DNA from: a virus
Taxonomy: Duplodnaviria; Caudoviricetes
Length of the DNA stretch: 64,000 bases
IMG/VR virus record: IMGVR_UViG_3300031993_000044
Span: 1-64,000 of that record
Strand: one strand, 5' to 3'
In this document: positions 16,368 through 53,358 of the stretch, in pieces
Position numbering within the stretch: position 1 is the stretch's first letter
Layout: every line of letters begins with the position of its first letter
Notes under the pieces: generated by a model
Seen by the model: the letters and a program-made list of their open reading frames with translations, nothing else
Told to the model about the DNA's origin: nothing
The model's database searches: none
Translations under genes and position numbers: made by a program

Positions 16368-16370
16368 AAG

Positions 16371-16757: not shown

Positions 16758-16759
16758 AG

Positions 16760-37689: not shown

Positions 37690-38058
37690 TTACAGAGTGA
37701 ATTTACAGACAGGACAAACATCGCAGTAACGAGTGAACTGTATGCGGAAATTGAGCAGCAGTATATGGACTGCGATTTAGACAAGGACACGTTTTGCAGC
37801 AGGTTCAAGCGCAAGGGCGGTATGCTGGAGTACACACGCCGCATGGTACGCGAGATTGAAGCTTTGCAAAAGCAGCTTGCAGACGAGAGGGCAAAGCGTG
37901 AGCAGGAGCGCATACATGCAGCAAAGGAGCTTGCCGAAGCTTGCACACAGCGCAACGCCTTTGAAAAGGAGCTTGTGAGAATCTACGACATCGAGGGCGA
38001 CCACAAGGCAATTTGGGCTTTGCACAACAGAATCATTGATAAATATTCAAATAAGTAA
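37687..38058 (+). CDS. hypothetical early protein (coiled coil)
   Basis: First gene after P1. Confidence 0.7.
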   Translation: MLQSEFTDRTNIAVTSELYAEIEQQYMDCDLDKDTFCSRFKRKGGMLEYTRRMVREIEALQKQLADERAKREQERIHAAKELAEACTQRNAFEKELVRIYDIEGDHKAIWALHNRIIDKYSNK

Positions 38059-38102
38059 TAACCGGCAGGGGGTGACACCCCTGCACTAAAAACAGTACGA
38101 CT

Positions 38103-38249
38103 ATGTTCAAGGAAACAATCAACAACTTTAAGGAGATTTGGCGCGACAAGAAAGAGCGCAAGGAGTTTATCGGCGGCATGTGCTGCGTGATAGCAATGTT
38201 CGCAGTAACGTATGTGTGGATGGTGATTGCATACGCAATACAGGGTTAA
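38103..38249 (+). CDS. 48-aa membrane peptide (not in ORF track)
   Basis: MFKETINNFKEIWRDKKERKEFIGGMCCVIAMFAVTYVWMVIAYAIQG*; preceded by CAGTACGACTATG. Confidence 0.65.
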   Translation: MFKETINNFKEIWRDKKERKEFIGGMCCVIAMFAVTYVWMVIAYAIQG

Positions 38250-38271
38250 TAACAGCTTAACAAGTACGACA

Positions 38272-38583
38272 ATGGAAATAGGAACGACAATGGTACGGTT
38301 TCAGATGCCAAAGGAGCAAATGAGCCAGCAGACGGACAAGGCAGTGCTGCTTGAACTGTTTAAGGTTGAAGCGACGGGCGAGCTTGTCAAGGAATGGGTG
38401 CCGCTCTCAAAGATTGAGTTTGAGGAAAGCACGGAAAACAGCGACGTGTACGACGTAATCATGCCCAAGTGGCTTTTCTACAAGAAGGACGTTCTGCCGC
38501 TGTACTGCAACGTAAAAAACGAGTTTGTGGTAACTACATACGCAGACAAGTACGAGCTGCTTGCAGCCGCGAGAAAACAGTAA
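38272..38583 (+). CDS. hypothetical protein
   Basis: AAGTACGACAATG start; TDKAVLL..WVPLSKI..MPKWL. Confidence 0.65.
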   Translation: MEIGTTMVRFQMPKEQMSQQTDKAVLLELFKVEATGELVKEWVPLSKIEFEESTENSDVYDVIMPKWLFYKKDVLPLYCNVKNEFVVTTYADKYELLAAARKQ

Positions 38584-38639
38584 AACAACGACAATTCAGT
38601 AATTAACTTTATTCATTAACATTTTTAATTCATACAACT

Positions 38640-39572
38640 ATGAGTACAACAATGATTGAAACGACAAAGGGTGTAAACAACAATCAGTTTTTCAACTTCG
38701 AAGAAGCAAAGGTGCAGGCATTGACGCTGGAGCAGCTGGAGCGCACTCACCGCGAGAATGACGTGTACGAGAAGCCGCTGCGTGGCATCTACCACTTCGC
38801 ACTTATCCACCAGCTGATTGACATGTGCAACGAGATTGGCTACAACGTGGAGCTGTACGACCTGTTTGCAGCTAACAACAAAGACCGTACCCAGCCGGGC
38901 GTTGTACGCCTCCCGCAGATTGAGCAGATTAAGGGCGAGCGTGCCATTGAAGCGCATATCCTGCGTAGAGTGTTCGCCAACGTGCGCATTACGGACTTCG
39001 ATAATCAGGAAACAACGACAAACCTTGCTGTTGCCTACCATCAGAAAGGCATACAGATTGGCTTCGGCCCTAACGTGATGATTTGCCACAACCAATGTAT
39101 GCTCGGTGCGCAGTACTACGGTGCCACATACGGCGACAAGGGCAAGGGCAAGAACTCCGCTAACAAGTACGAGCTTAACGAGCTGCTGGACGTTGTGAAG
39201 TCGTGGCTCGTGGACGCACGCCACATCATCGTTACGGAGCGCGATAAGATTGAGCGCATGAAGAATATCGAGGTGAGTGCTGACAAGCTGCTTGTCATTA
39301 TCGGAATGCTGACAGCCATCCGCGTTAAGTGTGACAGCACGAACAAGCTCATACACGAACACCGTACATACCCGCTCAACCAGGCACAGATTAACAGCCT
39401 TACGGAACGGCTGCTTATCAAGTACGAGGAAACAAAGCACGTGACGCTTTGGAACTTGTACAACGCCGCGACTGACATGTACAAGGTGCAGCAGATGGAC
39501 ACGCCGATGATTATGCCGCAAAACATAGCTTTGGCCGAGCTGCTGGAAGAGCAGTTCCACTTCGGAATGTAA
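38640..39572 (+). CDS. DUF932 family protein
   Basis: AVAYHQKGIQIGFGPNVMICHNQC; TLWNLYNAAT. Confidence 0.7.
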   Translation: MSTTMIETTKGVNNNQFFNFEEAKVQALTLEQLERTHRENDVYEKPLRGIYHFALIHQLIDMCNEIGYNVELYDLFAANNKDRTQPGVVRLPQIEQIKGERAIEAHILRRVFANVRITDFDNQETTTNLAVAYHQKGIQIGFGPNVMICHNQCMLGAQYYGATYGDKGKGKNSANKYELNELLDVVKSWLVDARHIIVTERDKIERMKNIEVSADKLLVIIGMLTAIRVKCDSTNKLIHEHRTYPLNQAQINSLTERLLIKYEETKHVTLWNLYNAATDMYKVQQMDTPMIMPQNIALAELLEEQFHFGM

Positions 39573-39642
39573 GACACAGTTCACGCAGGCAGCGTACACA
39601 CGTGCGCTGTCTGCATTTAATAACAACAAAAAAAGAAGAAAG

Positions 39643-40029
39643 ATGGATTTACAAGGTTCAATCGACTTGCTTAAGCTTACCAACGCTTGCGTTGCGACGC
39701 TTGGCAAGACAACGAAGAAAAGGTGCGTCGTTATCCCGATAGACGATAACGACCTCTCTGTGAAGAACGAGGACAACAGCACGAAGCCCCGTTCTGTGTA
39801 CTTGGGCGTGAACGTATGGGAACGGCAGCAGCCCAGCCAATACGGACATACGCACTACATCAAGCAAAGCTTCAGCAAGGCCTACCGGGAAGCGCACACT
39901 GAGGACGAAATGAAGAACAAGCCATTCTTTGGCGACATGAAGCCTATACTGCGTCAGAACGGTGCAACGTCGTTTGATGCGCCGGTAGTGGAAATGGAGC
40001 AGCAGGAAAAGGACGATTTACCATTCTAA
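39643..40029 (+). CDS. putative single-stranded DNA-binding protein
   Basis: GSIDLLKL beta-rich body with acidic DDLPF C-terminal tail. Confidence 0.55.
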   Translation: MDLQGSIDLLKLTNACVATLGKTTKKRCVVIPIDDNDLSVKNEDNSTKPRSVYLGVNVWERQQPSQYGHTHYIKQSFSKAYREAHTEDEMKNKPFFGDMKPILRQNGATSFDAPVVEMEQQEKDDLPF

Positions 40030-40041
40030 AACTTATACGAT

Positions 40042-40506
40042 ATGAGAAGCAGAACAGCACAATGGTTTCAGACCAAAATCAGGTATGAAAAGACGATGGA
40101 GGACGGCTTGCAGAAGAAAGTTACGGAGCTGTACACCATCGACGCATTAAGCCACGCGGAAGCGGAGGAACGTATCATAGAGGAAATGAGCCACTACATC
40201 AGCGGCGAGTACGAAGTGACAAGCGTAGTTCCTGCGCCCTACAAAGAAGTGTTCTTTAGCGACAGCATGGAAGCTGACCGCTACTTTAAGGCAAAGCTTG
40301 CATTCATCACCATCAACGAAAAGACGGAAAAGGAAAAGCGCACAGCCGTAACGTACCTTATCCACGCACAGACGTTTGACGGTGCTGTAAAGGCTATCCA
40401 CGAAGTGATGGGCGGCACGATGATAGACTACGTTGTCTTAAGCGTTGCCGAAACGAACATCATGGACGTTTTCGAGTACAAGAAGCCCGAAGAAGCAGAG
40501 GTATGA
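40042..40506 (+). CDS. DUF4494 family protein
   Basis: WFQTKIRYEKTMEDGLQKKVTELYTIDALSHAEAEERIIEEM. Confidence 0.85.
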   Translation: MRSRTAQWFQTKIRYEKTMEDGLQKKVTELYTIDALSHAEAEERIIEEMSHYISGEYEVTSVVPAPYKEVFFSDSMEADRYFKAKLAFITINEKTEKEKRTAVTYLIHAQTFDGAVKAIHEVMGGTMIDYVVLSVAETNIMDVFEYKKPEEAEV

Positions 40507-40697
40507 GCAATGTTGAAACGTTGAAGAAGCTGCAAGAGCAGTACAATGACCTGCGTAAAAGCAACGCTGTTGGGAGTATTCAGCTCAACAGCGTTGCCGG
40601 AACGCTGCTTATTGAAAACCGCAATGTCATTAACACAGTGCTTGACACGCTCATTGCGGAAACACAGAAGCGAATAGAAAAGGAAATGCAGATATGA
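40503..40697 (+). CDS. hypothetical protein
   Basis: ATGA coupling. Confidence 0.55.
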   Translation: MSNVETLKKLQEQYNDLRKSNAVGSIQLNSVAGTLLIENRNVINTVLDTLIAETQKRIEKEMQI

Positions 40698-40900
40698 CAG
40701 CAGTAAAAGTAACTTTCAAGCAGTCGGGCGACACGCAGTTTTTCAAAAGCTGTGCGGAGCTTTTCAAGCAGCACAGCAGCAAGGAACTTGGCATTTGCTT
40801 GGCCGCTTTGTGGAACGCCCTTTCACCCAGCAAGGGAAAGGAACGCTACGAGAACGACAACATAATCATTGAACGAACATCATTTAAGAACTGGCAGTAA
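40694..40900 (+). CDS. hypothetical protein
   Basis: ATGA coupling. Confidence 0.55.
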   Translation: MTAVKVTFKQSGDTQFFKSCAELFKQHSSKELGICLAALWNALSPSKGKERYENDNIIIERTSFKNWQ

Positions 40901-40904
40901 GACT

Positions 40905-41708
40905 ATGGCAAGTACGGCAACAAGGCTAAAGAGATACGAGCAACGTGTTAAGCAGGAGGTGGAAAAGCGCAAGAAGCTCTATGCAAAGCAGCTGGAACAC
41001 ACACGGCTTAAGGAACAGGCATTGCAGAAACGCGCAACGGAAACAAGCGAGGAACGCGAGGAACGGCAGACGGCTGTCTCAACGTTCTACAGCGTCACTT
41101 TCATCAACGACATCGTAGGCAATGTTGTCGTTGACTTTATTGCAGCAGCAAGGCAGGACAAGGAACTGTACCGCTTTACTGACAAGAAGAATGTTGAGCA
41201 GATAGAAAAGGCACGCACGGACTACGAGCAGCGGCTTGAAAGTGCTGCAAAGTATTACGGCTATTACATGTACGACATGATGGACTACGTGGAGGAAAAG
41301 ACGCGCAACGACGTTTTCTTCTACCGCAACGCAATACAGATGCAGTTTTCAAGGAACAAGCTGCCAAAGTATCAGCTTCTTGCGCTGCTGGAAACAGCAC
41401 GCTCACTTGCATGGTATGCGTGCCAGCTGTGTGACGCACGCATCAAGCACATTGAGAAGTACGACGACATGGCCTTCAACCTTGCACAGCTACGCATTAC
41501 CCAGCTGCATAACAAGCTGACAAGCCTTGCAGACAATTGGTACAAGCGTTTTTGTCCCAAGGGCGTGAAGATTGAACTTTACAAGGACATGAACAGCGCA
41601 AACGGCGTGCAGATAATAGCAAACAAGGTGGAAAGCGGCGACATGATAGCTGCTGCCATACAGTATGCAGACGAAAACGCAAAACAAAAAGGAGAAACGG
41701 AACAATGA
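40905..41708 (+). CDS. hypothetical helical protein
   Basis: ATG 40905 within ORF 40869..41708. Confidence 0.65.
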   Translation: MASTATRLKRYEQRVKQEVEKRKKLYAKQLEHTRLKEQALQKRATETSEEREERQTAVSTFYSVTFINDIVGNVVVDFIAAARQDKELYRFTDKKNVEQIEKARTDYEQRLESAAKYYGYYMYDMMDYVEEKTRNDVFFYRNAIQMQFSRNKLPKYQLLALLETARSLAWYACQLCDARIKHIEKYDDMAFNLAQLRITQLHNKLTSLADNWYKRFCPKGVKIELYKDMNSANGVQIIANKVESGDMIAAAIQYADENAKQKGETEQ

Positions 41709-42070
41709 AAGCAAGAATCATAAAGACGGGCGAGGTCGTGGACGTGCAGCCAGGCTCGCTTATAGCAATACAACGCGAGGGCGACGATTCATGGAACGGC
41801 GAGGAACTGGCCGTCGAAGAAGTGCAAATCATACCTGACGGCTACAACGAAGTGCGCACACGTGCAGCGATTGCAGCGATGCAGGGATTCATAACGACAA
41901 TGAGCAATGAAAGTGTCATTTGCTCCATAAACAGGAACGCACAGGAAAACAACATGGTTGCGTGCGAATGGGTCGCTGAAACGGCAGTGACTTATGCGGA
42001 CGCGCTTGTAAACGCATTATTCAATACAAACGGACAACATGAAGCTGATAAAGTACAAAACAAGGGTTGA
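41705..42070 (+). CDS. hypothetical phage protein
   Basis: MKARIIKTGEVVDV; RAAIAAMQG..AVTYADALV motif common in Bacteroidota phages. Confidence 0.65.
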   Translation: MKARIIKTGEVVDVQPGSLIAIQREGDDSWNGEELAVEEVQIIPDGYNEVRTRAAIAAMQGFITTMSNESVICSINRNAQENNMVACEWVAETAVTYADALVNALFNTNGQHEADKVQNKG

Positions 42071-42245
42071 CGCATCAAGCGGTACGTCCCGGCTGCTTAC
42101 TCCATGCCCATACGGCGAGAAGCACGGCCAAAAAGAGATTGTGAACAAAGTGGGTAGCATACACTGCAAACGGTGCAAGCACTATTTCAGTGAGCCTTTC
42201 CTGCACAGTGTTCAATGCAAGGCAGACGAGAGCAATAACGCTTAA
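42039..42245 (+). CDS. small Cys-rich protein
   Basis: TPCPYG..KVGSIHCKRCKHY. Confidence 0.55.
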   Translation: MKLIKYKTRVDASSGTSRLLTPCPYGEKHGQKEIVNKVGSIHCKRCKHYFSEPFLHSVQCKADESNNA

Positions 42246-42268
42246 ATAACAATCAAAAACAAAGTATT

Positions 42269-42538
42269 ATGAGTGACAATCACAAAAGATGCCCGGTTTG
42301 CGGAAAGTACGCAAGCAAGGCAATGGTAGAGAAGTACGAAAAGCTTGTTTCCGACAAGGCAATGCTGGAAAACAAGCTGAAAGTGAAAGAGGGGCTTGTG
42401 AACTCGCTGAAAGGTGAGATTGCAAAGCAAGCAGAGGAAATTGCAGCCCTGCGTGAAGCAAAGAACGACTTGCTTGCAAAGAACGAGCAGATGCTTAACC
42501 GTGGCTTCTTTGCACGCCTGTTTAACGTTAAGCACTAA
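42269..42538 (+). CDS. Zn-ribbon/coiled-coil protein
   Basis: CPVCGK followed by a coiled coil; RGFFARLF. Confidence 0.6.
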   Translation: MSDNHKRCPVCGKYASKAMVEKYEKLVSDKAMLENKLKVKEGLVNSLKGEIAKQAEEIAALREAKNDLLAKNEQMLNRGFFARLFNVKH

Positions 42539-42919
42539 ATGGACGCAAAGGACGTAACAAGCTTCATTACCGTGCTACGCGGAACAGACAAGTTCCTGCG
42601 TGACATCTACAGCTTTGGCGGCTGCTACAAGTTCGTCGTGCTGTTGCAGTACGTGTTTGGTCGTGGTGAGCCGTTTATGAACGCAGAGGGCAATCATTGC
42701 GCCTGCATGATAGACGGCTCACTATACGACATCGACGGGCTTGTTACGGATGAAGCGGGATGGCACGCTTTCAGCAAGGAGGACTACGAAAAGGCGCAGA
42801 AGTGGTCTTTTTCAAAGAACTACATGCTGCAAATAGCAGAGTGTCCGCATTGCGGAGAGCCTATCACGCATCCGAGCATGGACTATAAAATATGTGTGCA
42901 TGACAATAGAATGTTATAA
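42539..42919 (+). CDS. papain/transglutaminase-like fold protein (putative Cys-His-Asp)
   Basis: GGCYKF...NHCACMIDGSLYDIDG. Confidence 0.45.
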   Translation: MDAKDVTSFITVLRGTDKFLRDIYSFGGCYKFVVLLQYVFGRGEPFMNAEGNHCACMIDGSLYDIDGLVTDEAGWHAFSKEDYEKAQKWSFSKNYMLQIAECPHCGEPITHPSMDYKICVHDNRML

Positions 42920-43142
42920 CATCATGTTGCAGGGTACTTCCATTTGCGACACAATGCCGAAAAACCTGCGATTCCGCATACCTAAAAAGCCAAAGTTTAG
43001 GAACTTGCGGGAAAAGAAACGCTACGACAATCGTATGCTTAAGCGGCGAAAAGGCAAGCGGTTCACAGCGAAAGTGAACTACTATGACGAAATAAACTCT
43101 TTAGACAAAATACGGTTAGGATATGACAAAAAGGGAATTTGA
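42894..43142 (+). CDS. small basic hypothetical protein
   Basis: K/R-rich ORF; start uncertain. Confidence 0.4.
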   Translation: MCMTIECYNIMLQGTSICDTMPKNLRFRIPKKPKFRNLREKKRYDNRMLKRRKGKRFTAKVNYYDEINSLDKIRLGYDKKGI

Positions 43143-43202
43143 AACGGGCTGTGGCTGCATTTGCTGGCTGCTGGCACTGATAGTTATGCTTATTCTTTGC
43201 TT

Positions 43203-43550
43203 ATGAAAGAACGTATCTACATCAGCGGCCCTATAACCGGCCACGACATCTACGAGCGCAGGTCAACATTTGAAACTGTGCAGCACTACTTGGAACACCT
43301 GAACGGCTGGAAAGTGTTTAACCCGCTGAAAAACGGACTTCCAGCCGACGCGCACAGGTCGGAACACATGAGGGAGGACTTAAAGCAGCTGCTTAACTGT
43401 ACCGCTATCTACATGATGAAAGGTTGGGAGAAAAGCGCAGGCTGTCAGCTGGAGTTCAACATGGCTACGCAGATAGGCTTAAGTGTCTTTTTTGAAGGCC
43501 AAAAGCATTGGTTCGTGCAGTTTGCAACGGCAAAGTACACAGAGAAATGA
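43203..43550 (+). CDS. DUF4406 family protein
   Basis: IYISGPITG, FNP, LLNCTAIYMMKGWEKSAGCQLE. Confidence 0.88.
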   Translation: MKERIYISGPITGHDIYERRSTFETVQHYLEHLNGWKVFNPLKNGLPADAHRSEHMREDLKQLLNCTAIYMMKGWEKSAGCQLEFNMATQIGLSVFFEGQKHWFVQFATAKYTEK

Positions 43551-43807
43551 GGTACGCACTACGACGGCAGGACAAGCTGAAAGAAGCGTTTGGCGACGCT
43601 TTTTTGGCAGAGCTTAACGTGAGCCTTAAACTGTTTTTTGACGCACGCACGCCCGAAGAAGTGCAGCAGGAGCAGCACCCAGCGGAGCCGTACCCGACAA
43701 TCAACGTGCATTGCTTCGCCGACATCGACACTGTTTATGTGTTATACTGCACGCAGTTGGTGTACGACGTTCAGCACTTGGCATACAAAGAAACATTGAA
43801 GAAGTAA
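43547..43807 (+). CDS. hypothetical protein
   Basis: ATGA coupling; MRYALRRQDK. Confidence 0.55.
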   Translation: MRYALRRQDKLKEAFGDAFLAELNVSLKLFFDARTPEEVQQEQHPAEPYPTINVHCFADIDTVYVLYCTQLVYDVQHLAYKETLKK

Positions 43808-43811
43808 CAAC

Positions 43812-44306
43812 ATGAGCAATTACGACAAGCTTAAGCAAAGGGAGCAAAGCAGAAAGTTCTACGACTACGCCATTGGCATTGACACAGGCACGCACACGGG
43901 CATTGCGGTGTACGACATTGCCCAGCGCAAGCTTATACACGTTGACACGGTTAAGCTGCATGTTGCGCTGCTTTACGTGCTGGACTTCATTAAGAAGTGC
44001 GAGAGCGAGGGCAGTCACTTTTTCCTGCGTGTGGAAGATGCACGTCAGCGCAATTGGTTCGGCTCACGCTCACAGTACAAGTTGCAGGGTGCTGGCAGCG
44101 TCAAGCGTGACAGCGTTATTTGGCAGGACTTCTTGCTGGACTACGGGCTGACATTTGAAATGGTAGCACCGCAACGGCAGCAGGGCTACACAAAGCTTAC
44201 GCAGTCAGCCTTTACAAATCTCACGGGCTACAAGGGCAGGACATCAGAACACGCACGGGATGCAGCTATGCTTGTATTCGGGTGCAACAGAGTTATTCCA
44301 TTTTAA
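43812..44306 (+). CDS. RuvC/RNase H-like Holliday junction resolvase
   Basis: IGIDTGTHTGIA, VEDAR, SEHARDAAML. Confidence 0.75.
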   Translation: MSNYDKLKQREQSRKFYDYAIGIDTGTHTGIAVYDIAQRKLIHVDTVKLHVALLYVLDFIKKCESEGSHFFLRVEDARQRNWFGSRSQYKLQGAGSVKRDSVIWQDFLLDYGLTFEMVAPQRQQGYTKLTQSAFTNLTGYKGRTSEHARDAAMLVFGCNRVIPF

Positions 44307-44317
44307 CAAGTACGACT

Positions 44318-44566
44318 ATGATATTCATAAAAAACGGACATAAGCTTTGGGAAGACATCGAGCGTTATAAACGCATGTTCCCAAACTCATACATAAGCTA
44401 CGACCAAGTTAAGGCAGAGCTGGAAGAAAACAAGGACATGCCCAATGGTCAAGTGTTTGGCATTTCAGTGGCAAAGGAGTGGCCGGACAAGTGCTACGGC
44501 TTTGAAGTTGACAGCGTAACACCCAGTACAACAACTTTCCTGTATTTGGGGCTTTGGAAGTGCTGA
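44318..44566 (+). CDS. hypothetical protein
   Basis: AAGTACGACTATG start. Confidence 0.6.
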   Translation: MIFIKNGHKLWEDIERYKRMFPNSYISYDQVKAELEENKDMPNGQVFGISVAKEWPDKCYGFEVDSVTPSTTTFLYLGLWKC

Positions 44567-44583
44567 CAGCCGGCTTTCTTCTT

Positions 44584-44702
44584 AAAAATCCTTAATATTA
44601 TATAGTTTTGATTAGTTTTATTAGGTTTTTCGAGAAATAAGATTGACCTTTGCCACACGACAAACATCAGTTTAACTTTTAATTATAGGAGATACGACAA
44701 TG
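44584..44702 (+). promoter_or_regulatory. early promoter/leader cassette P2
   Basis: Same boxes and N27/N17 spacing as P1; -7 box GACCTTTG. Confidence 0.85.
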
Positions 44703-45152
44703 ACAACGACAATTGAAAAGAAGCAGACCCCAAAGGGGAAAAGCTATTGGGAAAACAGCGGTGCTTACAGCAAGGAAAACGACATCCTGTTTAAGCAGCT
44801 CGTTCCAGCTTCGGGTGAAGCAGACACAGTGAACGGTGAGCTTGTGCGTGCTGCCAACCGCTTGTACTACGAGTATTGCAACAACGGCAACATGAACGCT
44901 TGCGACGTTAAGTATTACGATTGGGACGAGGACGAAGAAGATGGTGAGTACAGCGTCAACGCATACTACAAGAAGATGCTGGACTTCATCCGCGAACACG
45001 TTAGCGAAGCAAGCGACCTTTGCGACAAAGTAGAGCAGATTATCCTTGATTCCCACTTTTCCGACAGCGACGAGGACATGCACACTTACGACCTATTCTG
45101 CGACGCTGTTATGTACTACGTGCTTACACACGACAATAAGAAAAGAGCTTAA
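44700..45152 (+). CDS. hypothetical acidic early protein
   Basis: LVPASGEADTVNGELVRAANRLYYEYCNNGN. Confidence 0.7.
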   Translation: MTTTIEKKQTPKGKSYWENSGAYSKENDILFKQLVPASGEADTVNGELVRAANRLYYEYCNNGNMNACDVKYYDWDEDEEDGEYSVNAYYKKMLDFIREHVSEASDLCDKVEQIILDSHFSDSDEDMHTYDLFCDAVMYYVLTHDNKKRA

Positions 45153-45163
45153 TCAGTACGACT

Positions 45164-45511
45164 ATGACAGAGCAAGAACTTAAAAAGTACAAGGTGCAAG
45201 TTCCGAAAGGCTTTCCCGTAGCCTTTCGGGACACTCGCATTACGGACGAGTACGGCATCTATGAAACGGGATTGTTTCAGTATCAGGGCATGAAGATTTG
45301 CATTAGCATTGACGATGGCAAGTGGCACTTGTCTGTCAGCGCAAAGTACCCGCTTGGCTATGAGCAGCTGAAAAAGGTGCGCTACATGTTCCTGCCAAAC
45401 GCAATGCACGTTGCGCAGATATTCCCGCCCAGGGAGCAGTTTGTAAACGTTCATACGTGCTGCTGGCACTTATGGGAAATAGACTTTGAGAATGACGGCG
45501 ACAATGAGTAA
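45164..45511 (+). CDS. conserved phage protein (DUF7694-like)
   Basis: WHLSVS..YEQLKKVRY..AQIFPPREQFVNVH.CCWHLW. Confidence 0.65.
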   Translation: MTEQELKKYKVQVPKGFPVAFRDTRITDEYGIYETGLFQYQGMKICISIDDGKWHLSVSAKYPLGYEQLKKVRYMFLPNAMHVAQIFPPREQFVNVHTCCWHLWEIDFENDGDNE

Positions 45512-45680
45512 CAGAACGGACAATATTGTACGTGTTGCAATGTGGCTGCTTATAGTGGCTTGCAGCCTGCAAAGCGTTTACTACCTGCTTCACTTGCAGC
45601 TTGCGGAAACGTTGCTTTTCGCGCTGTCAGCAGCACAAAGCTGGTGCAATATTGTCATGCTAAACGAAACAGAATTATGA
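45504..45680 (+). CDS. small membrane protein
   Basis: Two hydrophobic segments; coupled overlaps. Confidence 0.5.
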   Translation: MSNRTDNIVRVAMWLLIVACSLQSVYYLLHLQLAETLLFALSAAQSWCNIVMLNETEL

Positions 45681-45904
45681 TGATACTTTTCAAAGACGAG
45701 CAAGGCAACAGCGTTGGCAGATGGGTCAACGTGGAGTATGCCGACCACGGAACGCCACAAATAGGCGACCATGTTATACTGCACAGCGGCGACTATAACG
45801 AGCTTGCGCAGGAGTTTGTAATCAAGTACCGCACGTTTGACGGCACAAAGATGAATGTTGTTTACGCGACGGTCGAAGCAGTAGGAAAGGAGTACAAGGT
45901 ATGA
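45677..45904 (+). CDS. hypothetical protein
   Basis: ATG 45677; PQIGDHVIL. Confidence 0.55.
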   Translation: MMILFKDEQGNSVGRWVNVEYADHGTPQIGDHVILHSGDYNELAQEFVIKYRTFDGTKMNVVYATVEAVGKEYKV

Positions 45905-46062
45905 CAGTAAACATCACAATTAAGGCAGAACACGGCGAGCTTAAGCTGGAGGGCTGCACAAAGTCACCACTTGTTGACGCACTGGAAGATGCGCTTAAGA
46001 ACTTTGACGACTTGCTCGTAGGCAAGCCCAAGAAGATAATAATTGACAACATCAAACAGTAA
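45901..46062 (+). CDS. 53-aa hypothetical protein (not in ORF track)
   Basis: MTVNITIKAEHGELKLEG...IDNIKQ*; ATGA coupling. Confidence 0.55.
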   Translation: MTVNITIKAEHGELKLEGCTKSPLVDALEDALKNFDDLLVGKPKKIIIDNIKQ

Positions 46063-46068
46063 ACGACT

Positions 46069-46581
46069 ATGGCACAACAGAAGATGATTGGCTCTGAAAT
46101 GTTCATTGAACGCATACAGGAGTTTATCGACAAGCAGATAGCGGAGGATGCAGCGTTTGCGGAAAAGGTGCGCAACACAAAGCGCACTGTGAACGATTGC
46201 GCTGCATGGATGATTGAGAAGCTTGCACAGGACTTTCAAAAGACGGGCAAGATGGGCTACGACGACAGCGAGATTTACGGGCTTGCACTGCATTTCTTCG
46301 ACGAGCCTAACCTAAAGGCAAAGGGCAACTTGAATTTCCAAGGGCTGATAATGAGCAACCGCCCGGCGACAAGGCCATACAATCCGCGTGAGCTTACGGA
46401 CGAGGAAAAGGCACGCTTGGACGATGCAGCACGTGAGCAGTACAAGAACGAGCAGCTTAACAAGTTTCGTATGCAGGAACAAAAGGAGCGAGAGAAAGAA
46501 GAAAAGCGCATTGCAAAGGCAAAGGAACGCCAGCAGCAGCAAGCACAGCAGTATGTTCAACCCTCATTATTTGATATGTAA
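46069..46581 (+). CDS. PcfK-like protein (family includes the anti-CRISPR AcrIIA9)
   Basis: FAEKVRNTKRTVNDCAAWM, GYDDSEIYGLALHFFDE, QPSLF. Confidence 0.8.
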   Translation: MAQQKMIGSEMFIERIQEFIDKQIAEDAAFAEKVRNTKRTVNDCAAWMIEKLAQDFQKTGKMGYDDSEIYGLALHFFDEPNLKAKGNLNFQGLIMSNRPATRPYNPRELTDEEKARLDDAAREQYKNEQLNKFRMQEQKEREKEEKRIAKAKERQQQQAQQYVQPSLFDM

Positions 46582-46583
46582 CT

Positions 46584-47111
46584 ATGAATAAAGTCGAACT
46601 TTATCAGGAAATGCTCATTGAAGCAATGAAGCGTCGTATTAACGCTGTAACAGACGAGCAAAATGCGCTCAACAACTTAATGGGCGCAAAGATTAGCAAC
46701 ATTTGGAAACACATAGGAAAGAAGCAGTACACAATCGACGGGCGAAAGTTCGTTCCAGCACAAATAAAGTGGTACGAATCTTCATTCCAGCCGTGCTACT
46801 GCATTACAATTACATTCCTTTGCGTACCGTCAGAACTTCTTAAGGACAAGAAGCTGACAGACACGGAGCGCAAGAAAATACGCGAATATGAAAAGAGCGT
46901 CTTCAACGAATTTTCGTTTGACGTTCAGAAAAGCAATTTGAATGAAGTGCTGTTAGACAAAGTACACAGAGACTTTCATTGGGAGTTGTACAACTGCCGC
47001 AACAAAATACAAGTTTGTGAAATCAGGGAATGGAAATACGACTTGGAGGACATAACGTCAGACAGCTTTGTTAGAAACGGAATGACGATGGATAGTCAAT
47101 TTCTTTGGTAG
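46584..47111 (+). CDS. hypothetical protein
   Basis: 175-aa ORF between the PcfK and PcfJ genes; lower GC than neighbours by eye. Confidence 0.6.
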   Translation: MNKVELYQEMLIEAMKRRINAVTDEQNALNNLMGAKISNIWKHIGKKQYTIDGRKFVPAQIKWYESSFQPCYCITITFLCVPSELLKDKKLTDTERKKIREYEKSVFNEFSFDVQKSNLNEVLLDKVHRDFHWELYNCRNKIQVCEIREWKYDLEDITSDSFVRNGMTMDSQFLW

Positions 47112-47113
47112 CT

Positions 47114-48421
47114 ATGACACCACACACTAAAGCACAGAAAGAAGTCGTGCAGTTGGCAACCCAGCTGCACGACTTGACAAAGGCAGAAAGAGTTTGGGCG
47201 TTGAAAAACGTGCCTTACTTCATAGGACACGCAAGCCGTGGTACTGTCACTTGTATGCACTGCGGACACACGTTTGACTACAAGGGCAAGGAAACGCAAC
47301 GCTGCCCTCACTGCAAGCGCACGCTGCATATTACAGAGACGCGCAAGGAATCAGCACGCGACGTTGAGTGCTTTGTGCTTATCGACGCAATAGACAGATG
47401 GCAGGTTATGCGCTACTTCCACGTAGTGACAGAGTGCTTGAAGTCGGGAAAGCAGGGAAAAACGCGCATTTCGGAGATTATGCAACGCTGGATAGGCTCA
47501 AAGGGCGAGTACGTTATACTTGCGAAGACGCGCAACATCTGCTTCTATAACGCATCGTGGAACTATGACAGCGAAATGTTGTGCCGGCAGATACCCGACA
47601 AGTATTACTGCAACGGCATTGACAGGGAGGGCTATTGCGACATGCTTGTACGTAAGTGGCATCCTGCACTGCAACACGTGCCATACGACAAGGACGTGTG
47701 CAAGCTGGATATTTTCACGTACATGCGTGCTATGATGTCAAGCCCATACGCCGAAACGCTGTTTAAGATGGGCAGGATGAAGCTTTTCCGAAAGTGTGCA
47801 GAAGAAAACTATTTCAGCAACAGCGAAATCGTTGCAGCCATACGAATTGCGCTTAAGAACAAGTACGACATTGAGAAGGACATGAGCATTTGGCTTGACA
47901 TGGTTTGCGTGCTCTACAAGTTGAAAAAGGACTTGCACAGCCCGGCCTACGTCTGCCCGAAGAATCTGCATGAGGCACACGACAAGTATTTCAACCGCTG
48001 GCACAGGATTGAGGACGAGAAGCAGCGCAAGCTCGACGCAAAGCGGATGCTGCAAAAGCTGCTGCAATCAAAGAAGCAAAACGAAGCGTACATCAAGCGT
48101 ATGCAGCCGTTCTTTGGGCTGCTTCTCAAAGAGGGCAACTTGCAGATACACGTTCTTAAGGACGTGGAGGAATTTGCAACGGAAGCGTCTGTAATGGGGC
48201 ATTGCGTGTTTCAGAATGAGTATTACAACCGCCCAAGCTCGCTTATCATGTCGGCACAGGTCAACGGCAAGCGTACTGAAACAGTGGAAGTGTCACTGCA
48301 AAGCTTCACAATACAACAGTCACGAGGGCATAAGAACTTGCCGACAAAGTTTCACAAGCAGATAGTGTCACTCGTAAACAGGAACATGAATCTTATCAGA
48401 CAAGCAGCAAGCGCAGGTTAG
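47114..48421 (+). CDS. PcfJ domain protein
   Basis: CMHCG, CPHC, WLDMVCVLYKLKKDLHSPAYVCPKNLHEAHD, MGHCV, ETVEVSL..QSRG. Confidence 0.88.
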   Translation: MTPHTKAQKEVVQLATQLHDLTKAERVWALKNVPYFIGHASRGTVTCMHCGHTFDYKGKETQRCPHCKRTLHITETRKESARDVECFVLIDAIDRWQVMRYFHVVTECLKSGKQGKTRISEIMQRWIGSKGEYVILAKTRNICFYNASWNYDSEMLCRQIPDKYYCNGIDREGYCDMLVRKWHPALQHVPYDKDVCKLDIFTYMRAMMSSPYAETLFKMGRMKLFRKCAEENYFSNSEIVAAIRIALKNKYDIEKDMSIWLDMVCVLYKLKKDLHSPAYVCPKNLHEAHDKYFNRWHRIEDEKQRKLDAKRMLQKLLQSKKQNEAYIKRMQPFFGLLLKEGNLQIHVLKDVEEFATEASVMGHCVFQNEYYNRPSSLIMSAQVNGKRTETVEVSLQSFTIQQSRGHKNLPTKFHKQIVSLVNRNMNLIRQAASAG

Positions 48422-48631
48422 TCACCCCTGCGCTTGTAGTTCTTTTTTGCGTGCGTCGTAGATGTGCCTGGCACGCTGTACTCTTTCGCTTTCTTCAAAC
48501 TCGACATATTCAAGCTTTGTGCCAGTGCGCTTGTACTGCTGCAAAGCTTGCTCTATTATAACATCACGCAAAACTTTGTCTGAAGCCCATGCTGCCATGC
48601 GGATAGCTTCAATGTACTGCATCTTTATCAT
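48422..48631 (-). CDS. hypothetical protein
   Basis: Last gene of a three-gene minus operon; ATAA overlap. Confidence 0.5.
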   Translation of the reverse strand: MIKMQYIEAIRMAAWASDKVLRDVIIEQALQQYKRTGTKLEYVEFEESERVQRARHIYDARKKELQAQG

Positions 48632-49002
48632 AAGTCCACGCCCCCGGCAATGCCAATATACGTTTTTCCATTGATTTCAAGCTGCTGTACGCCGCTATTT
48701 GCATCGAGCCGATAAACTGTCAGGCTCTCCGTTTTTCCGTCGCTGTACGTAAGCGTAACGCTTGGAGCGTTGACTGTGTAGGTGTACTGCTGTACGCTGG
48801 AGCTGCCAACGTTCTTTGCGCCCGTCAGTTCGCTGCCAATGCGAAAGAACGAGTAAGACGTGCTGCTGTCACTCCACCGCTGGACTGAAACAAGGTAGTC
48901 AACGGTGACGGGCAACTTCTTTACGCCCGTGTCCTCGTCGCTGTCACTGCTGCAAGCAAATAGCGACACAATTAAAGTACATGCAAGAAGTATCTTTTTC
49001 AT
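48628..49002 (-). CDS. lipoprotein (possible superinfection exclusion)
   Basis: MKKILLACTLIVSLFA-C lipobox followed by SSDSDED acidic export signal. Confidence 0.75.
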   Translation of the reverse strand: MKKILLACTLIVSLFACSSDSDEDTGVKKLPVTVDYLVSVQRWSDSSTSYSFFRIGSELTGAKNVGSSSVQQYTYTVNAPSVTLTYSDGKTESLTVYRLDANSGVQQLEINGKTYIGIAGGVDL

Positions 49003-49340
49003 GCAGATTGTTTGTAGTTGGGTTTGAGTGATTCCATTATCTCCGAAAGCTGTGCTTGCGCAAACACGCATTCATCACTTGCAACGTCAAACGCTGCTGC
49101 ACAGCTGTCATGTGCTTTGAGTAACGCACGCGCATTACTGCGTATGCCAGCGATTAGGCGCAACGTCTGATAATCGAACTTGACGCTTACATCGTCAGGG
49201 AACGTGCTGCTGTTAGAACTTACTTTGGGCTGTGCCATTCGCAGGACATGAGCTGCTGCCTGGCAATAGTTGGCAAGCTGGATGCTGAAATCTTTGTGCA
49301 ACAGCATTGCTTCACGCAAATTCATTTTGTTATAGTCCAT
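48999..49340 (-). CDS. hypothetical helical protein
   Basis: First gene after a TACCTTTG promoter; ATGA coupling. Confidence 0.55.
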   Translation of the reverse strand: MDYNKMNLREAMLLHKDFSIQLANYCQAAAHVLRMAQPKVSSNSSTFPDDVSVKFDYQTLRLIAGIRSNARALLKAHDSCAAAFDVASDECVFAQAQLSEIMESLKPNYKQSA

Positions 49341-49364
49341 GCTGTCAAAGTTTAATTACAGCTG

Positions 49365-49372
49365 CAAAGGTA
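49365..49372 (-). promoter_or_regulatory. -7 box TACCTTTG for the lipoprotein operon
   Basis: Canonical TAnnTTTG about 25 nt upstream of ATG 49340. Confidence 0.7.
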
Positions 49373-49460
49373 ACACTTTCAGCCGGAAAAACGCACACGT
49401 TCACATAAATTAAGGTGGAAAGAAAACTTAATAACTATACGAAACTAAACATTTCTTGTT

Positions 49461-49562
49461 AAAAATCCGAAATATACTAAATAAAATATAGAAATTATTA
49501 GGTTTTTAGAGTTTTTCTTACGACCTTTGCCATACAGTTTAACAAAAAGAGATACGACAATG
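49461..49562 (+). promoter_or_regulatory. early promoter/leader cassette P3
   Basis: Same boxes and N27/N17 spacing; GACCTTTG; AGATACGACAATG. Confidence 0.85.
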
Positions 49563-50138
49563 AAAAAGAATTTTAAGAACATCGACGAGGAACTGAACGC
49601 TTACAGCGCATTCCTTGATGAAAGTGAGTACGGCAAGACTGTCAAGCAGATACGTGAAGCTTGCAAGGACTATTTCTACACGTACACGGGTGAGCTCGGC
49701 ATGGAAAGCAGCGAACTTACGGACTACGGAACAATGTACAGCTGGGGATTCAACGGCAACGAGCTTCGCTTTGCCGAAAACTTGCTGCACTACCTCGCAA
49801 ACTTCGACATCGTGCTACAGGTCGGCAAGAACGCAGACGAGCGCAACAGCAACCACAACGACGTTGCAAAGCTGCTTAACAAGCTCATTAAGCTGGGCAA
49901 CGAGATTGAAGCAAGGAGTGAAGCGCAAACGAAGCTCCGCTATGCAGTACACTGTGACTTGGACGTAATGGTAGAGGGCGGCTACACACAGCAGCAGTGC
50001 TTGGATTGGTTCGCCGGTAAGGATGCAGCAGAGGTTTACGAGCTTAAGGACGGCAAGGACGTTAAGGCTGATGAAGTGCTGCTGGACGTTGTGAAGGAAC
50101 TTTTACCCATGCACTTCGAAGGAACTGCCATAAAATAA
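49560..50138 (+). CDS. hypothetical early protein
   Basis: First gene after P3. Confidence 0.65.
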   Translation: MKKNFKNIDEELNAYSAFLDESEYGKTVKQIREACKDYFYTYTGELGMESSELTDYGTMYSWGFNGNELRFAENLLHYLANFDIVLQVGKNADERNSNHNDVAKLLNKLIKLGNEIEARSEAQTKLRYAVHCDLDVMVEGGYTQQQCLDWFAGKDAAEVYELKDGKDVKADEVLLDVVKELLPMHFEGTAIK

Positions 50139-50202
50139 TATATAAGTTGAACACCGGGAGCAGCAACACGGCTGCTCCCACAAAGCAAGAAAGGAAACGA
50201 CA

Positions 50203-50595
50203 ATGCCACAACAGTACGACATTAAGGTTTGGCAGCAGATGCTTACAGACGTAAAGGCTGCTAACACAAAGATGCGCCAGCGCATCGACAGCAAGGCACA
50301 GACGGGCTACGTAGTAATCAGCAACACTTTCGACCATTGCGTTTGCAGCGACGAAAACCGCTGTGCAACGGTGCAGGTTGTCGCTTGCAGTACAGAGCCA
50401 GTTATCATGCCGAAAAGCAACGCAGAGCGCATTGCTAACACGTTCAAAGCATATTGTGGAGTATCAGAGCAACGGCGCATTTGTTGGCAGGTTATGAATG
50501 TGCTGGAATACTACAGGCGGCTTGTCACGCGCAACGAGCGCATGATTGAGATATTGGAAGAAGCACTTGGAAACAAGAGTTTAGTTACAGCTTAA
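50203..50595 (+). CDS. hypothetical protein
   Basis: AAACGACAATG start. Confidence 0.6.
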   Translation: MPQQYDIKVWQQMLTDVKAANTKMRQRIDSKAQTGYVVISNTFDHCVCSDENRCATVQVVACSTEPVIMPKSNAERIANTFKAYCGVSEQRRICWQVMNVLEYYRRLVTRNERMIEILEEALGNKSLVTA

Positions 50596-50609
50596 CACAG
50601 TACGGCATT

Positions 50610-50996
50610 ATGGAAAAGAAATCACTTTACATCGAGTACAAATCACAGCGCAAGCGTGCCAACGACTGCGCTGTGAGAGCACTGATGAAGCTCCTTACGT
50701 TGAGTTGGGTAGAAGCTTACAACGAGCTTTGCAGTGCCGGGCGTACAGTAATGCGTATGCCCGACGAGATAGATTCTATTCGCGTAGCAATAGAAAGCTT
50801 CGGCTTCAAAAAAGTGTCAATACCCGTGACGAAAGGCTGCAAGCGGCCAACAGTTGAAAGCTTTGCAGCGGAGCACCCACAGGGGCGTTACTTGCTTAAC
50901 GTTGCCCAACACGTTGTAGCCTGCGTTGACGGGCACTATTACGATAGTTGGGATTGCGGAGAAAAGTGTGTCTATAACTATTGGGAGGGCGAATAA
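50610..50996 (+). CDS. papain/C39-like fold protein (putative Cys-His-Asp)
   Basis: NDCAVRAL...QHVVACVDGHYYDSWDCG. Confidence 0.55.
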   Translation: MEKKSLYIEYKSQRKRANDCAVRALMKLLTLSWVEAYNELCSAGRTVMRMPDEIDSIRVAIESFGFKKVSIPVTKGCKRPTVESFAAEHPQGRYLLNVAQHVVACVDGHYYDSWDCGEKCVYNYWEGE

Positions 50997-51178
50997 TGGA
51001 AAAGGCAAAAAGAGTGTTCTTTGTGTATAACGATTGCAGCCCTGACAGGAAAGAGCATAGGGTTGAATTAACGAAAGAACTCATGTCCGAATGGGGCTAC
51101 AAGGACATAAATCACATGAAACGAAACATGATGGGCTGGATAGGCTTAAACAAACATTTTGAAGTTGAAGAACAATAA
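50996..51178 (+). CDS. hypothetical protein
   Basis: TAATG coupling. Confidence 0.5.
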   Translation: MEKAKRVFFVYNDCSPDRKEHRVELTKELMSEWGYKDINHMKRNMMGWIGLNKHFEVEEQ

Positions 51179-51193
51179 AAAAACATTACAACA

Positions 51194-51532
51194 ATGAAAA
51201 AGATTTCAGAGTTAAAAGTGGGTGACAGCGTTACTTGTTACGAGCCATATAGTAACAACATTAAGAACGCTTACGAAGCAAAGGTTACAAAGGTTGGCAG
51301 AAAGTACATCACTGTGTGGCATAGTACACACTTTGACAAGGACACGGGACACGGCGAAAACGGCTATCAGCTTTTCGTTGGAAATTTTGACGAGTTTGAA
51401 GCATGGTTTGCGTTGAAGCCAACGCGCATGAAGCAACGAAGCAATATAGAATCCATGATTAGGGAGCTTGACGTGCCGGAACTGACAAAGATTATTAACT
51501 TCATACAACGTTTGGAGAATGAAACAGAGTAG
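51194..51532 (+). CDS. beta-barrel hypothetical protein
   Basis: LKVGDSV..AKVTKVGRKYITV. Confidence 0.6.
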   Translation: MKKISELKVGDSVTCYEPYSNNIKNAYEAKVTKVGRKYITVWHSTHFDKDTGHGENGYQLFVGNFDEFEAWFALKPTRMKQRSNIESMIRELDVPELTKIINFIQRLENETE

Positions 51533-51737
51533 CACAACGTACCCTACACGCATTGCGGCAATGGTACGGCAGTTTGAGTCAATCGACGCACAGCCGAAAA
51601 TCAGCACAGAGCAGCTTTCAATACACATGGAGCAGCCCTGCGGATGCAACCTTACGGAACACTTCAACTGTCCTACGGAGGACTTAAATCAGCGTTATTA
51701 CGTAGAACTGTGCGAGAAGCACAAATTAGAGCTTTAA
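51519..51737 (+). CDS. hypothetical protein
   Basis: Packed ORF. Confidence 0.5.
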   Translation: MKQSSTTYPTRIAAMVRQFESIDAQPKISTEQLSIHMEQPCGCNLTEHFNCPTEDLNQRYYVELCEKHKLEL

Positions 51738-51741
51738 CAAC

Positions 51742-52080
51742 ATGCAAGAAGTAACAAACATCAAACAGTCAAACCGTCTGCTGTCAATAATAGGCAGCGA
51801 CAGGACAGCCGACTTTTGGCGCACGCCCAAGGTTGGCGGGTACATTATCAGCACGGAGAAAAAGGTCAACAGCACGCCCGCATGGAGCGTGACGGCACTC
51901 ATGGATATGCTGGATGAACATTTCGACGAGGAAAACGGCACTGCGATACCCCTCATAAACCCGCTCGAAAACTATGTGTACTTTGATGCAAACGGATTTC
52001 TCGTTGAGGAATTTTCGCGTAGCACGCTGCTTATAGACAACTTGATTGACGCAATAGAATGGCAGAATAAAAATGGATAA
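51742..52080 (+). CDS. hypothetical protein
   Basis: PAWSVTALMDML; LIDNLIDAIEW. Confidence 0.55.
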   Translation: MQEVTNIKQSNRLLSIIGSDRTADFWRTPKVGGYIISTEKKVNSTPAWSVTALMDMLDEHFDEENGTAIPLINPLENYVYFDANGFLVEEFSRSTLLIDNLIDAIEWQNKNG

Positions 52081-52378
52081 GAGAGTATTCAGGGCGTTGC
52101 AGCACGACAACCTTTTCAGCGACGATGTTAGCCCGGTGGAGTTCACAAAGTCTAACCGCAAGTACAAGCTTGCTGGATGGGGAAAGGTCGTAAGCGGCGA
52201 GATACACAACGACATCTATCTGTGGAGCTTCAAAAAGAGCAAGCTGCCCATTGTGGACGCAGAAATTGAAACTGTTGTGGGTGAGCGTGTGAAGCTCATG
52301 CGCATTGGCAGGACATCAAAGTACGTAGAGCGTGCAAAGCGTCTTTACTCGGAGGAATTGGGCTATGTGGCGTACTGA
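52073..52378 (+). CDS. hypothetical protein
   Basis: Last gene of the P3 operon. Confidence 0.55.
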   Translation: MDKRVFRALQHDNLFSDDVSPVEFTKSNRKYKLAGWGKVVSGEIHNDIYLWSFKKSKLPIVDAEIETVVGERVKLMRIGRTSKYVERAKRLYSEELGYVAY

Positions 52379-52380
52379 CA

Positions 52381-52483
52381 CAAAAAAGCCCCCGCGTCAG
52401 TACGACAAACACGCAGGGGCTACGACATTTCAGTTTAACTTTGCGTAAAACTGTACGAGCAAGGCACAGAAATACAACAATGT
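52381..52483 (-). ncRNA. candidate antisense sRNA (~100 nt)
   Basis: Minus-strand TACCTTTG promoter (52489-52496), no ORF, GC hairpin plus U6 terminator (52382-52420); modules complementary to early leaders and start-codon motifs. Confidence 0.6.
52382..52420 (-). terminator. intrinsic terminator (minus strand)
   Basis: GCCCCUGCGU-13-nt loop-ACGCGGGGGC-UUUUUU; the one plus-strand mismatch is a G:U pair only on the minus strand. Confidence 0.8.
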
Positions 52484-52488
52484 CGGTG

Positions 52489-52496
52489 CAAAGGTA
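52489..52496 (-). promoter_or_regulatory. -7 box TACCTTTG (sRNA promoter)
   Basis: TACCTTTGCACCGAC. Confidence 0.7.
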
Positions 52497-52540
52497 TGAA
52501 ATTTTGGTGGTAAACCGATACAACTTCGACAAAAAATGAG

Positions 52541-52548
52541 TAATTTTG
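52541..52548 (+). promoter_or_regulatory. -7 box TAATTTTG for the ARH/immunity operon
   Basis: TAnnTTTG about 45 nt upstream of ATG 52594. Confidence 0.65.
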
Positions 52549-52593
52549 CGAAAAATTTGAATTAACAAGGACATTTTAAGACATTTCAGAGGT

Positions 52594-53358
52594 ATGTTAG
52601 GAGCAATTATCGGCGACATTGTAGGGTCGCGTTTCGAATTTCACAACACAGACAAGTACAACTTTGGAAAGCTGTTCACAAAGCAGTGCGACTTTACGGA
52701 CGACACAATTTGCACTGTGGCAATAGCACACGCAATACTTAAGGCTGACTACAACTACAAGGACGCGCTGCTGTATTGGTGCAGAAAGTACCCTAACCCG
52801 ATGGGCAGTTACGGCGGCAGCTTTGCACGCTGGATAAACAGCGAAGACCCACAACCGTACAACAGCTTCGGTAACGGTGCTGCAATGCGTGTCAGCCCTG
52901 TTGCGTTTACATGGAGCACGTCGGCAGACGTTATACGCGAAGCGATAGCAACAGCAAGCGTGTCACACAATCACCCGGAGGGCATTAAGGGAGCAATGGC
53001 AACTGCACTTGCAACGTTTGCGCTGCGCAAGAGCCATAACAAGGAAACTGCGATACGCATAGAACAGCTTTTCTACGACTTGAACGCTAAATATACACGC
53101 GGACGCTTTGACGAGACTTGTCAGGGAACTGTACCCGTTGCGCTTCGCATCATTTCAGAGAGCTGCGACTTTGAGGACGCTATAAGAATGGCAATGGCCT
53201 GGGGCGGCGACAGTGACACGTTGGGCGCAATAGTAGGCGGCATGGCAGAAGCTTTGTACGGCATACCCAGCGACATTAAAGCTGCTGCAATGGAGTACCT
53301 GCCAGCAGATATGAGGATAGTTATTAGAGAGTTTTACGACGCTTTTGTGCATGAATAA
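52594..53358 (+). CDS. ADP-ribosylglycohydrolase (DraG/ARH family)
   Basis: MLGAIIGDIVGS, FTDDT, GNGAAMRVSP, GGDSDTLGAI. Confidence 0.93.
   Translation: MLGAIIGDIVGSRFEFHNTDKYNFGKLFTKQCDFTDDTICTVAIAHAILKADYNYKDALLYWCRKYPNPMGSYGGSFARWINSEDPQPYNSFGNGAAMRVSPVAFTWSTSADVIREAIATASVSHNHPEGIKGAMATALATFALRKSHNKETAIRIEQLFYDLNAKYTRGRFDETCQGTVPVALRIISESCDFEDAIRMAMAWGGDSDTLGAIVGGMAEALYGIPSDIKAAAMEYLPADMRIVIREFYDAFVHE

Follow-up and report, generated by a model that had tools for sequence, protein, structure and literature searches.

A candidate trans-acting antisense small RNA gene complementary to dispersed operon leaders and to a recurrent start-codon tag in a putative Bacteroidota phage

The virus record from which the window analysed here was taken is 86,989 bp long and has direct terminal repeats; the window comprises its first 64,000 nucleotides (bases 1-64000). 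The full record is referred to below as the 87-kb genome, and positions beyond the window are given as genome positions. The locus of interest lies on the minus strand inside a 215-nt gap, which runs from the stop codon at 52378 to the start codon at 52594 and is bordered on both sides by plus-strand genes. The protein encoded upstream has no relatives in IMG/VR, and the closest relatives bearing a name of the ADP-ribosylglycohydrolase encoded downstream are from Prevotella. Related contigs, all from metagenome assemblies, suggest a ruminant gut origin, and we infer that the host of the phage is a Prevotella-like member of the rumen or gut Bacteroidota. The features of the locus and its neighbours are as follows.

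52073-52378 (+), upstream gene, 101 aa, no family match
52381-52496 (-), RNA locus
52381-52386 (-), U6 tail, the end of the terminator
52387-52421 (-), terminator hairpin with an 11-bp G+C-rich stem and a 13-nt loop, GUUUGUCGUACUG (module A'), at 52398-52410
52422-52441 (-), linker AAGUUAAACUGAAAUGUCGU, predicted to be single-stranded (module B' and a middle module)
52451-52469 (-), stem-loop 1, with the invariant loop CUUGCUC
52470-52483 (-), 5' module C' (ACAUUGUUGUAU...), complementary to GATACGACAATG at the first start codon of the promoter cassettes
52381-52484 (-), predicted non-coding RNA of about 104 nt, its start inferred at 52481-52484 and its end given by the U6 tail
52489-52496 (-), -7 box TACCTTTG, TAnnTTTG, of the Bacteroidota sigma-ABfr type by sequence reading
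52541-52548 (+), divergent -7 box TAATTTTG of the ADP-ribosylglycohydrolase operon, in which GTAATTTTGCA is the same in all variants
52580-52589 (+), GACATTTCAG, at -14 to -5 of the ADP-ribosylglycohydrolase start codon, 10 nt complementary to the linker
52594-53358 (+), ADP-ribosylglycohydrolase, PF03747 match

The first-pass annotation had proposed a minus-strand Bacteroidota promoter at this locus, and the -7 box is found where it had been placed; 18 nt of the promoter match the core promoter of P1, one of four promoter cassettes (P1-P4) of the 87-kb genome. The same annotation held that the GC hairpin with its U6 tail works only on the minus strand, and this is upheld by the plus-strand version of the terminator stem, which contains a C.A mismatch and is not followed by a U run. 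On the minus strand the terminator hairpin has a predicted fold energy of -35 kcal/mol (z = -3.1). The further statement that about 100 nt are free of an ORF needs qualification, as a formal 107-aa minus-strand ORF (52296-52619) spans the locus in the window, but stops break this ORF in every relative and no ORF is conserved. The plus-strand ORF measures 19 aa here and 5 aa in the relatives, indels in the alignment of variants shift the frame, and six-frame translations of three variants revealed no reading frame shared on either strand. Since the frames are not kept in relatives, neither a small peptide, on whichever strand, nor a toxin-antitoxin pair of type I was retained as an explanation.

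Other classes of element were considered for the same stretch. A tRNA or tmRNA was excluded by ARAGORN, and a cmscan search of positions 51800-53000 against 4227 Rfam families, with E values up to 10, returned only chance-level matches to mir-277 and NsiR1. No hairpin resembling that of a CRISPR repeat was seen when the locus was compared by eye with such repeats, and a comparison with 16S rRNA, likewise by eye, found that only the hexamer GUCGUA is shared. A plus-strand promoter at 52436 (TAACTTTG) was rejected because it is absent in the relative L136.

Relatives of the locus were gathered by pattern scans and by way of the neighbours of the glycohydrolase gene, which yielded syntenic phage contigs; together with the window they provide an alignment (A4) of seven distinct sequences. 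With a covariance model of the RNA (R1), a single copy is detected in the window, at 128.7 bits, and a single copy in each syntenic relative. The unit is absent, according to the same model, from 47 more distant terminase-related phages, no copy of the RNA turned up when reference prokaryote genomes were scanned twice, and a 14-mer scan gave noise only. In Bacteroides phage Versailles the glycohydrolase gene abuts its upstream gene and leaves no gap for such a unit. In L238 and L239, a glycohydrolase 71% identical to that of the window directly follows an integrase gene in a different element, with neither gap nor RNA. The RNA is tied to the present phage lineage and not to the glycohydrolase gene as such. 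One of the syntenic relatives, L244, has a large terminase of 839 aa (16206-18725, minus strand), as compared with about 530 aa in the others, with faint matches to Hint/intein families, which suggests that this terminase may carry an intein insertion.

Across the seven variants, the -7 box of the RNA reads TA(C/T)CTTTGCA at a constant distance, while the 44 nt that separate it from the -7 box of the glycohydrolase operon are variable. The RNA and the glycohydrolase operon form a conserved divergent promoter pair, and the upstream neighbour differs among relatives. The RNA region is 84-85% identical to the relatives, as compared with 71-78% for the flanking genes, and its differences lie mostly in the stems. 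Identical in all seven are the 5' segment GACAUUGU, the loop CUUGCUC, the whole linker and the terminator loop segment UGUUUGUCGUACU; the 13-nt terminator loop is near-invariant, its first 12 nt being the same in all variants. The run of T residues that encodes the tail is 5-7 nt long in six of the seven and is interrupted in L244.

The stems vary in a manner that preserves pairing. In the two-hairpin model, 98.2% of the cells across the seven variants are paired, with three pairs changed on both sides and several wobble changes, and none of 500 shuffled controls matched the observed pairing score. The helix of stem-loop 1 is 97% paired, with changes from U-A to A-U and from U-A through U.G to C-G, and the terminator stem is 98.7% paired, with two pairs changed on both sides and four wobble changes. 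Read on the plus strand, these values fall to 68% for stem-loop 1 and 85.7% for the terminator. There are 20 G.U cells in the helices, while A.C cells are absent, so that the helices fit a minus-strand RNA only. The 3' arm of stem-loop 1 had been described as a further near-copy of the target motif (module D); the sequence CUCGUACAG is present, but it is merely this stem arm and is not kept in L244.

Predicted accessibility differs between the conserved parts. The cost of opening the terminator loop is 0.4-1.2 kcal/mol and that of the linker core GUUAAACUG is 0.7-1.3 kcal/mol, with up to 3.1 kcal/mol for its flanks in one variant, while the 5' module, which is partly paired within the RNA, would cost about 6 kcal/mol. 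Because the promoter box is kept, the minus-strand hairpins co-vary, the unpaired parts are invariant and no reading frame is conserved, it is very likely, as judged from sequence, that the locus is a real minus-strand small RNA gene.

The unpaired parts of the predicted RNA are complementary to the leaders of the four cassettes, which contain up to three short boxes, A, B and C, arranged as follows.

37648-37690 (+), P1 leader, with box A at 37648-37657, box B at 37659-37667 and box C, including the start codon, at 37679-37690
44657-44702 (+), P2 leader, with box A at 44657-44666, box B at 44667-44679 (13 nt) and box C at 44691-44702
49535-49562 (+), P3 leader, with box B at 49535-49543 and box C at 49551-49562
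Genome 78804-78883, P4 cassette, outside the window, with an TAACTTTG -7 box, boxes A and B, and AAACGACAATG
38093-38101 (+), example of a start-site tag, CAGTACGAC before ATG, with others at 38263, 45153, 50212 and 51187

The antisense modules described in the first-pass annotation were recovered at the nucleotide level. Module A has exact matches to ACGACAAACA at 37648 and 44657, to CAGTACGAC at 38093, to AGTACGACAA at 38263 and to TCAGTACGAC at 45153; module B has exact matches to TCAGTTTAACTTT at 44667 and to CAGTTTAAC at 37659 and 49535; and module C pairs with GATACGACAATG of P1-P3 over 12-15 bp, G.U pairs included, and exactly with TACAACAATG at 51187. The linker is complementary to CAGTTTAAC(TTT) of P1-P4, and also to ACGACATT of the P2-type leaders in relatives. 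The -7 box precedes these boxes by 3-10 nt, which would place them at the extreme 5' ends of the mRNAs.

Single matches of 9-10 nt are common: the plus strand has 83 and the minus strand 47, where about 32 would be expected on each, and such lone matches carry little weight. The co-occurrence of the boxes, in contrast, exceeds chance. There are six copies of CAGTTTAAC in the 87-kb genome, all on the plus strand and four of them in promoter cassettes, and seven copies of ACGACAAAC; both boxes at most 110 nt apart and in the same order are found in the whole genome only at P1, P2, P4 and the RNA locus itself. On the plus strand of the locus, boxes A, B and C follow one another as they do in the cassette leaders, which makes the RNA collinear and antiparallel with them. 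The same leaders were found in relatives, where the P2-type leader has the form ACGACAA-ACGACAT(T)-AAGTTTAACTTT, and the locus resembles a leader of this type with stem arms added around box A. Two broader comparisons were less discriminating. RNAduplex predictions for the whole RNA against every 70-nt segment of the genome did not single out the leaders (leaders -25 to -42, mean -35, best -63 kcal/mol), and in a gapped local alignment of the locus with the genome, a method that proved too permissive, P2 was placed third and the other leaders were unranked. Separately, the P1 operon contains a 29-nt inverted repeat at 40544-40614 (76% complementary, 13-nt spacer), which gives a weak minus-strand match to the covariance model by way of a terminator-like hairpin (E 0.28).

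The first-pass annotation had also named co-variation of the locus and the leaders across related phages as a check. The helices do co-vary and complementarity to the leaders is kept, but no clear co-variation between RNA and target was seen, the RNA modules being invariant. In the 5' module of one relative, a U-to-C and an A-to-G change both still permit pairing with box C. For the terminator loop and the start tags, the base before GTACGAC (CAG versus AAG before TACGAC) showed no tracking between two genomes.

Complementarity extends beyond the cassettes, as the terminator loop mirrors a tag, (A/C)AGTACGAC, that precedes start codons. At least 8 nt of this tag are found between -45 and +25 of the start in about a quarter of the plus-strand genes (17 of 71, against 0-1 in controls), and the same count in the relative G001 gave 12 genes; controls across both genomes, consisting of reversed and reverse-complement sequences, gave 0-3. 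In window positions 37600-52400 and genome positions 69900-85400 taken together, the plus strand has 21 sites, and the minus strand 7, at which TACGAC precedes an ATG by no more than 6 nt. The tag places an A at -1, -3 and -6; an adenine preference has been reported for Bacteroidetes start regions, and the A positions of the tag fit it.

Some candidate targets outside the cassette leaders have longer or conserved sites. The linker-complementary stretch just before the glycohydrolase start codon is kept in six of the seven variants, including L007 and L245, in which an A-to-G change would still give a G.U pair, and is lost in L244; from its sequence, the glycohydrolase leader is a possible neighbouring target of the RNA. 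This leader has matches to two modules, and further two-module sites were found at a gene at genome 70008, which encodes a 279-aa protein with weak likeness to a replication initiator, and at a 400-aa gene at genome 81115, where the two matches measure 12 and 13 nt. The G001 orthologue of the former matches its own RNA over 10 and 11 nt, slightly better than the 9 and 9 nt with the other RNA. An additional repeated sequence is the decamer GCAAGGCACA, of which the 87 kb contain six copies where about 0.2 would be expected (window 6802, 50291 and 52459; genome 64093, 67571 (-) and 86688 (-)); one copy lies in stem-loop 1, and codon usage may explain the repetition.

The wider genome informs the setting in which such an RNA would act. 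The absence of a recognisable CI-like repressor from the window had been noted earlier, but this premise fails genome-wide. Outside the window, in a lysogeny module at genome 67401-69620, a 388-aa integrase (phrog_1) is encoded, and adjoining it, at genome 68833-69456, lies a gene for a 207-aa repressor of the CI/LexA type with a Peptidase_S24 domain. The presence of both indicates that the phage is temperate and owns a CI/LexA-type repressor. A promoter at about 69450-69540 that faces the repressor gene has the upstream boxes of P1-P4 and lacks leader boxes A-C, and the upstream boxes common to the cassettes may be operators of this repressor spread over the genome. The promoter of the RNA gene is without these upstream boxes and, lacking the presumed operators, would stay active in a lysogen. 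Closer to the RNA, a plus-strand gene at 51194-51532 encodes a 112-aa protein that matches PF24203, a phage ProQ C-terminal-like domain (38.8 bits; cut-off 27), and a gene of this family lies 1-1.5 kb upstream of the RNA in this genome, in G001/G003 and in L245. The main RNA-binding activity of ProQ sits in its N-terminal domain, and a connection between the PF24203 protein and the RNA is a lead only.

Several other explanations could account for a conserved RNA gene at this position. It is possible, though unlikely, that the RNA is real and conserved but has host mRNAs or a protein as its targets, and that its likeness to the leaders is the trace of a duplicated P2-type leader. The reading of the locus as such a leader with stem arms around box A agrees with this, as do the weak antisense match of the covariance model to the P2 leader of G001 and the fact that no co-variation of RNA and target was seen. 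A relic would be expected to decay, however, yet the leader-complementary stretches are invariant in seven variants whose stems and flanks have changed, and the loop matches the start tags of 17 genes that are not leader paralogues. We regard as rather improbable a unit that acts in cis only, in which a convergent transcript and its terminator would keep P3 operon transcription from running on into the glycohydrolase operon, either through transcriptional interference or through a duplex with the read-through RNA in the manner of lambda OOP. The RNA does end 2 nt from the stop codon of the upstream gene, no plus-strand terminator was found after that gene, and it is the divergent pair with the glycohydrolase operon that is conserved while the upstream neighbour varies. 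Insulation would be independent of sequence, though, and the unpaired parts are nevertheless invariant and match distant leaders, while the RNA overlaps no coding sequence.

The last alternative, already raised in the first-pass annotation as a sense-strand sponge, assigns function to the plus strand, which would mimic a leader or act as a sponge for a factor with affinity for UACGAC and the leader boxes, or would be a cluster of DNA operators. This strand has four TACGAC-like copies (52401, 52421, 52454 and 52473) in addition to boxes A, B and C in leader order, and its transcription by read-through is likely. It is nonetheless disfavoured by the strand asymmetry of the helices, which lose 13-30% of their pairs when read in this direction, all 20 wobble cells favouring the minus strand. 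The U tail and the conserved -7 box likewise belong to the minus strand, the TAACTTTG box is lost in L136 and the third TACGAC-like copy is not kept in L244, and box A lies in the loop of a co-varying RNA hairpin that a DNA operator would not need. We therefore consider a plus-strand function very improbable.

From the sequence evidence, we favour the interpretation that the locus probably encodes a trans-acting antisense small RNA about 104 nt long. Host RNA polymerase would probably transcribe this RNA from its own TAnnTTTG promoter as far as the intrinsic terminator of the gene. Both the linker and the loop of the terminator are predicted to be accessible and could then base-pair with the P1-P4 mRNAs, whose 5' ends carry boxes A and B. 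A second partner for the loop would be the (A/C)AGTACGAC tag, which immediately precedes the AUG in about a quarter of the plus-strand genes. From the 5' end of the RNA, pairing could subsequently be extended over the first start codon of each cassette, and the likely outcome would be a block of ribosome loading, perhaps with mRNA decay, for the whole class of genes. Given that the phage is temperate, has a protein repressor and lacks the cassette upstream boxes at the RNA promoter, the RNA would most plausibly add a second layer of immunity, at the level of RNA, in lysogens, or set the timing during lytic growth. A more general proposal is decidedly tentative, namely that Bacteroidota phages may tag their own genes with (A/C)AGTACGAC and leader boxes, and that one master small RNA may read the tag and switch the class as a form of RNA immunity or timing.

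Very little is known of post-transcriptional control in the Bacteroidota and their phages, and a search of the full-text literature found no description of such an anti-leader RNA in Bacteroidota phages. If the interpretation is correct, a temperate phage of 87 kb has four dispersed operons, and about a quarter of its plus-strand genes, under the control of a single RNA of 100 nt. This would be a regulon-wide form of the single-operon antisense immunity of phages P1 and P4, and the recurrent TACGAC start tag would gain a function. The RNA or its loop might then provide a handle with which to switch classes of phage genes in gut and rumen Bacteroidota.

A conceptual likeness to P4 CI and P1 C4 had been proposed from the outset, and the likeness in logic stands, but the present RNA is not a member of the C4 family, as cmscan found neither a sequence nor a structure match to the Rfam family. 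Like the c4 RNA of phages P1 and P7 (immI) and the CI RNA of P4, the predicted RNA is a short phage RNA whose exposed stretches are complementary to the leader or start sites of its own phage's mRNA. The c4 RNA is cut from the leader of the operon that it controls and has a single target operon, whereas the RNA described here has its own promoter and terminator, is oriented against the operons on either side, and has as its predicted targets four dispersed operons and many start sites, in a host of a different phylum. Full repression of ant in phage P1 requires the c4 RNA beside the C1 protein repressor (PMC8198154). A CI/LexA-type repressor similarly coexists with the predicted RNA in the present phage, as c4 acts beside a protein repressor in a temperate phage. 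Other antisense RNAs of phages, such as lambda OOP and P22 sar, overlap their target genes and have full complementarity to them. They too are short, have their own promoter and terminator and run opposite to the flow of an early operon, but the present RNA lies clear of all genes, at a distance of 3-26 kb from its proposed targets.

Within the host phylum, the nearest point of comparison is GibS of Bacteroides thetaiotaomicron, an intergenic small RNA with its own start site and terminator whose single-stranded seed pairs at start regions, in bacteria that lack Shine-Dalgarno-led initiation and have neither Hfq nor ProQ (PMC7366714). The traits of a GibS-type small RNA are present here, namely a TAnnTTTG promoter of the sigma-ABfr type, an intrinsic terminator, no conserved ORF, and a conserved, predicted-unpaired seed complementary to start regions, with no known chaperone. 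GibS differs in that it is encoded on the chromosome, acts on metabolic genes of the host and does not resemble the phage RNA in sequence; the latter is phage-borne, has several exposed modules including the terminator loop, and is predicted to be aimed at phage genes. The predicted RNA is closest in its logic to c4 and CI, and closest in its anatomy to the intergenic small RNAs of Bacteroides such as GibS.
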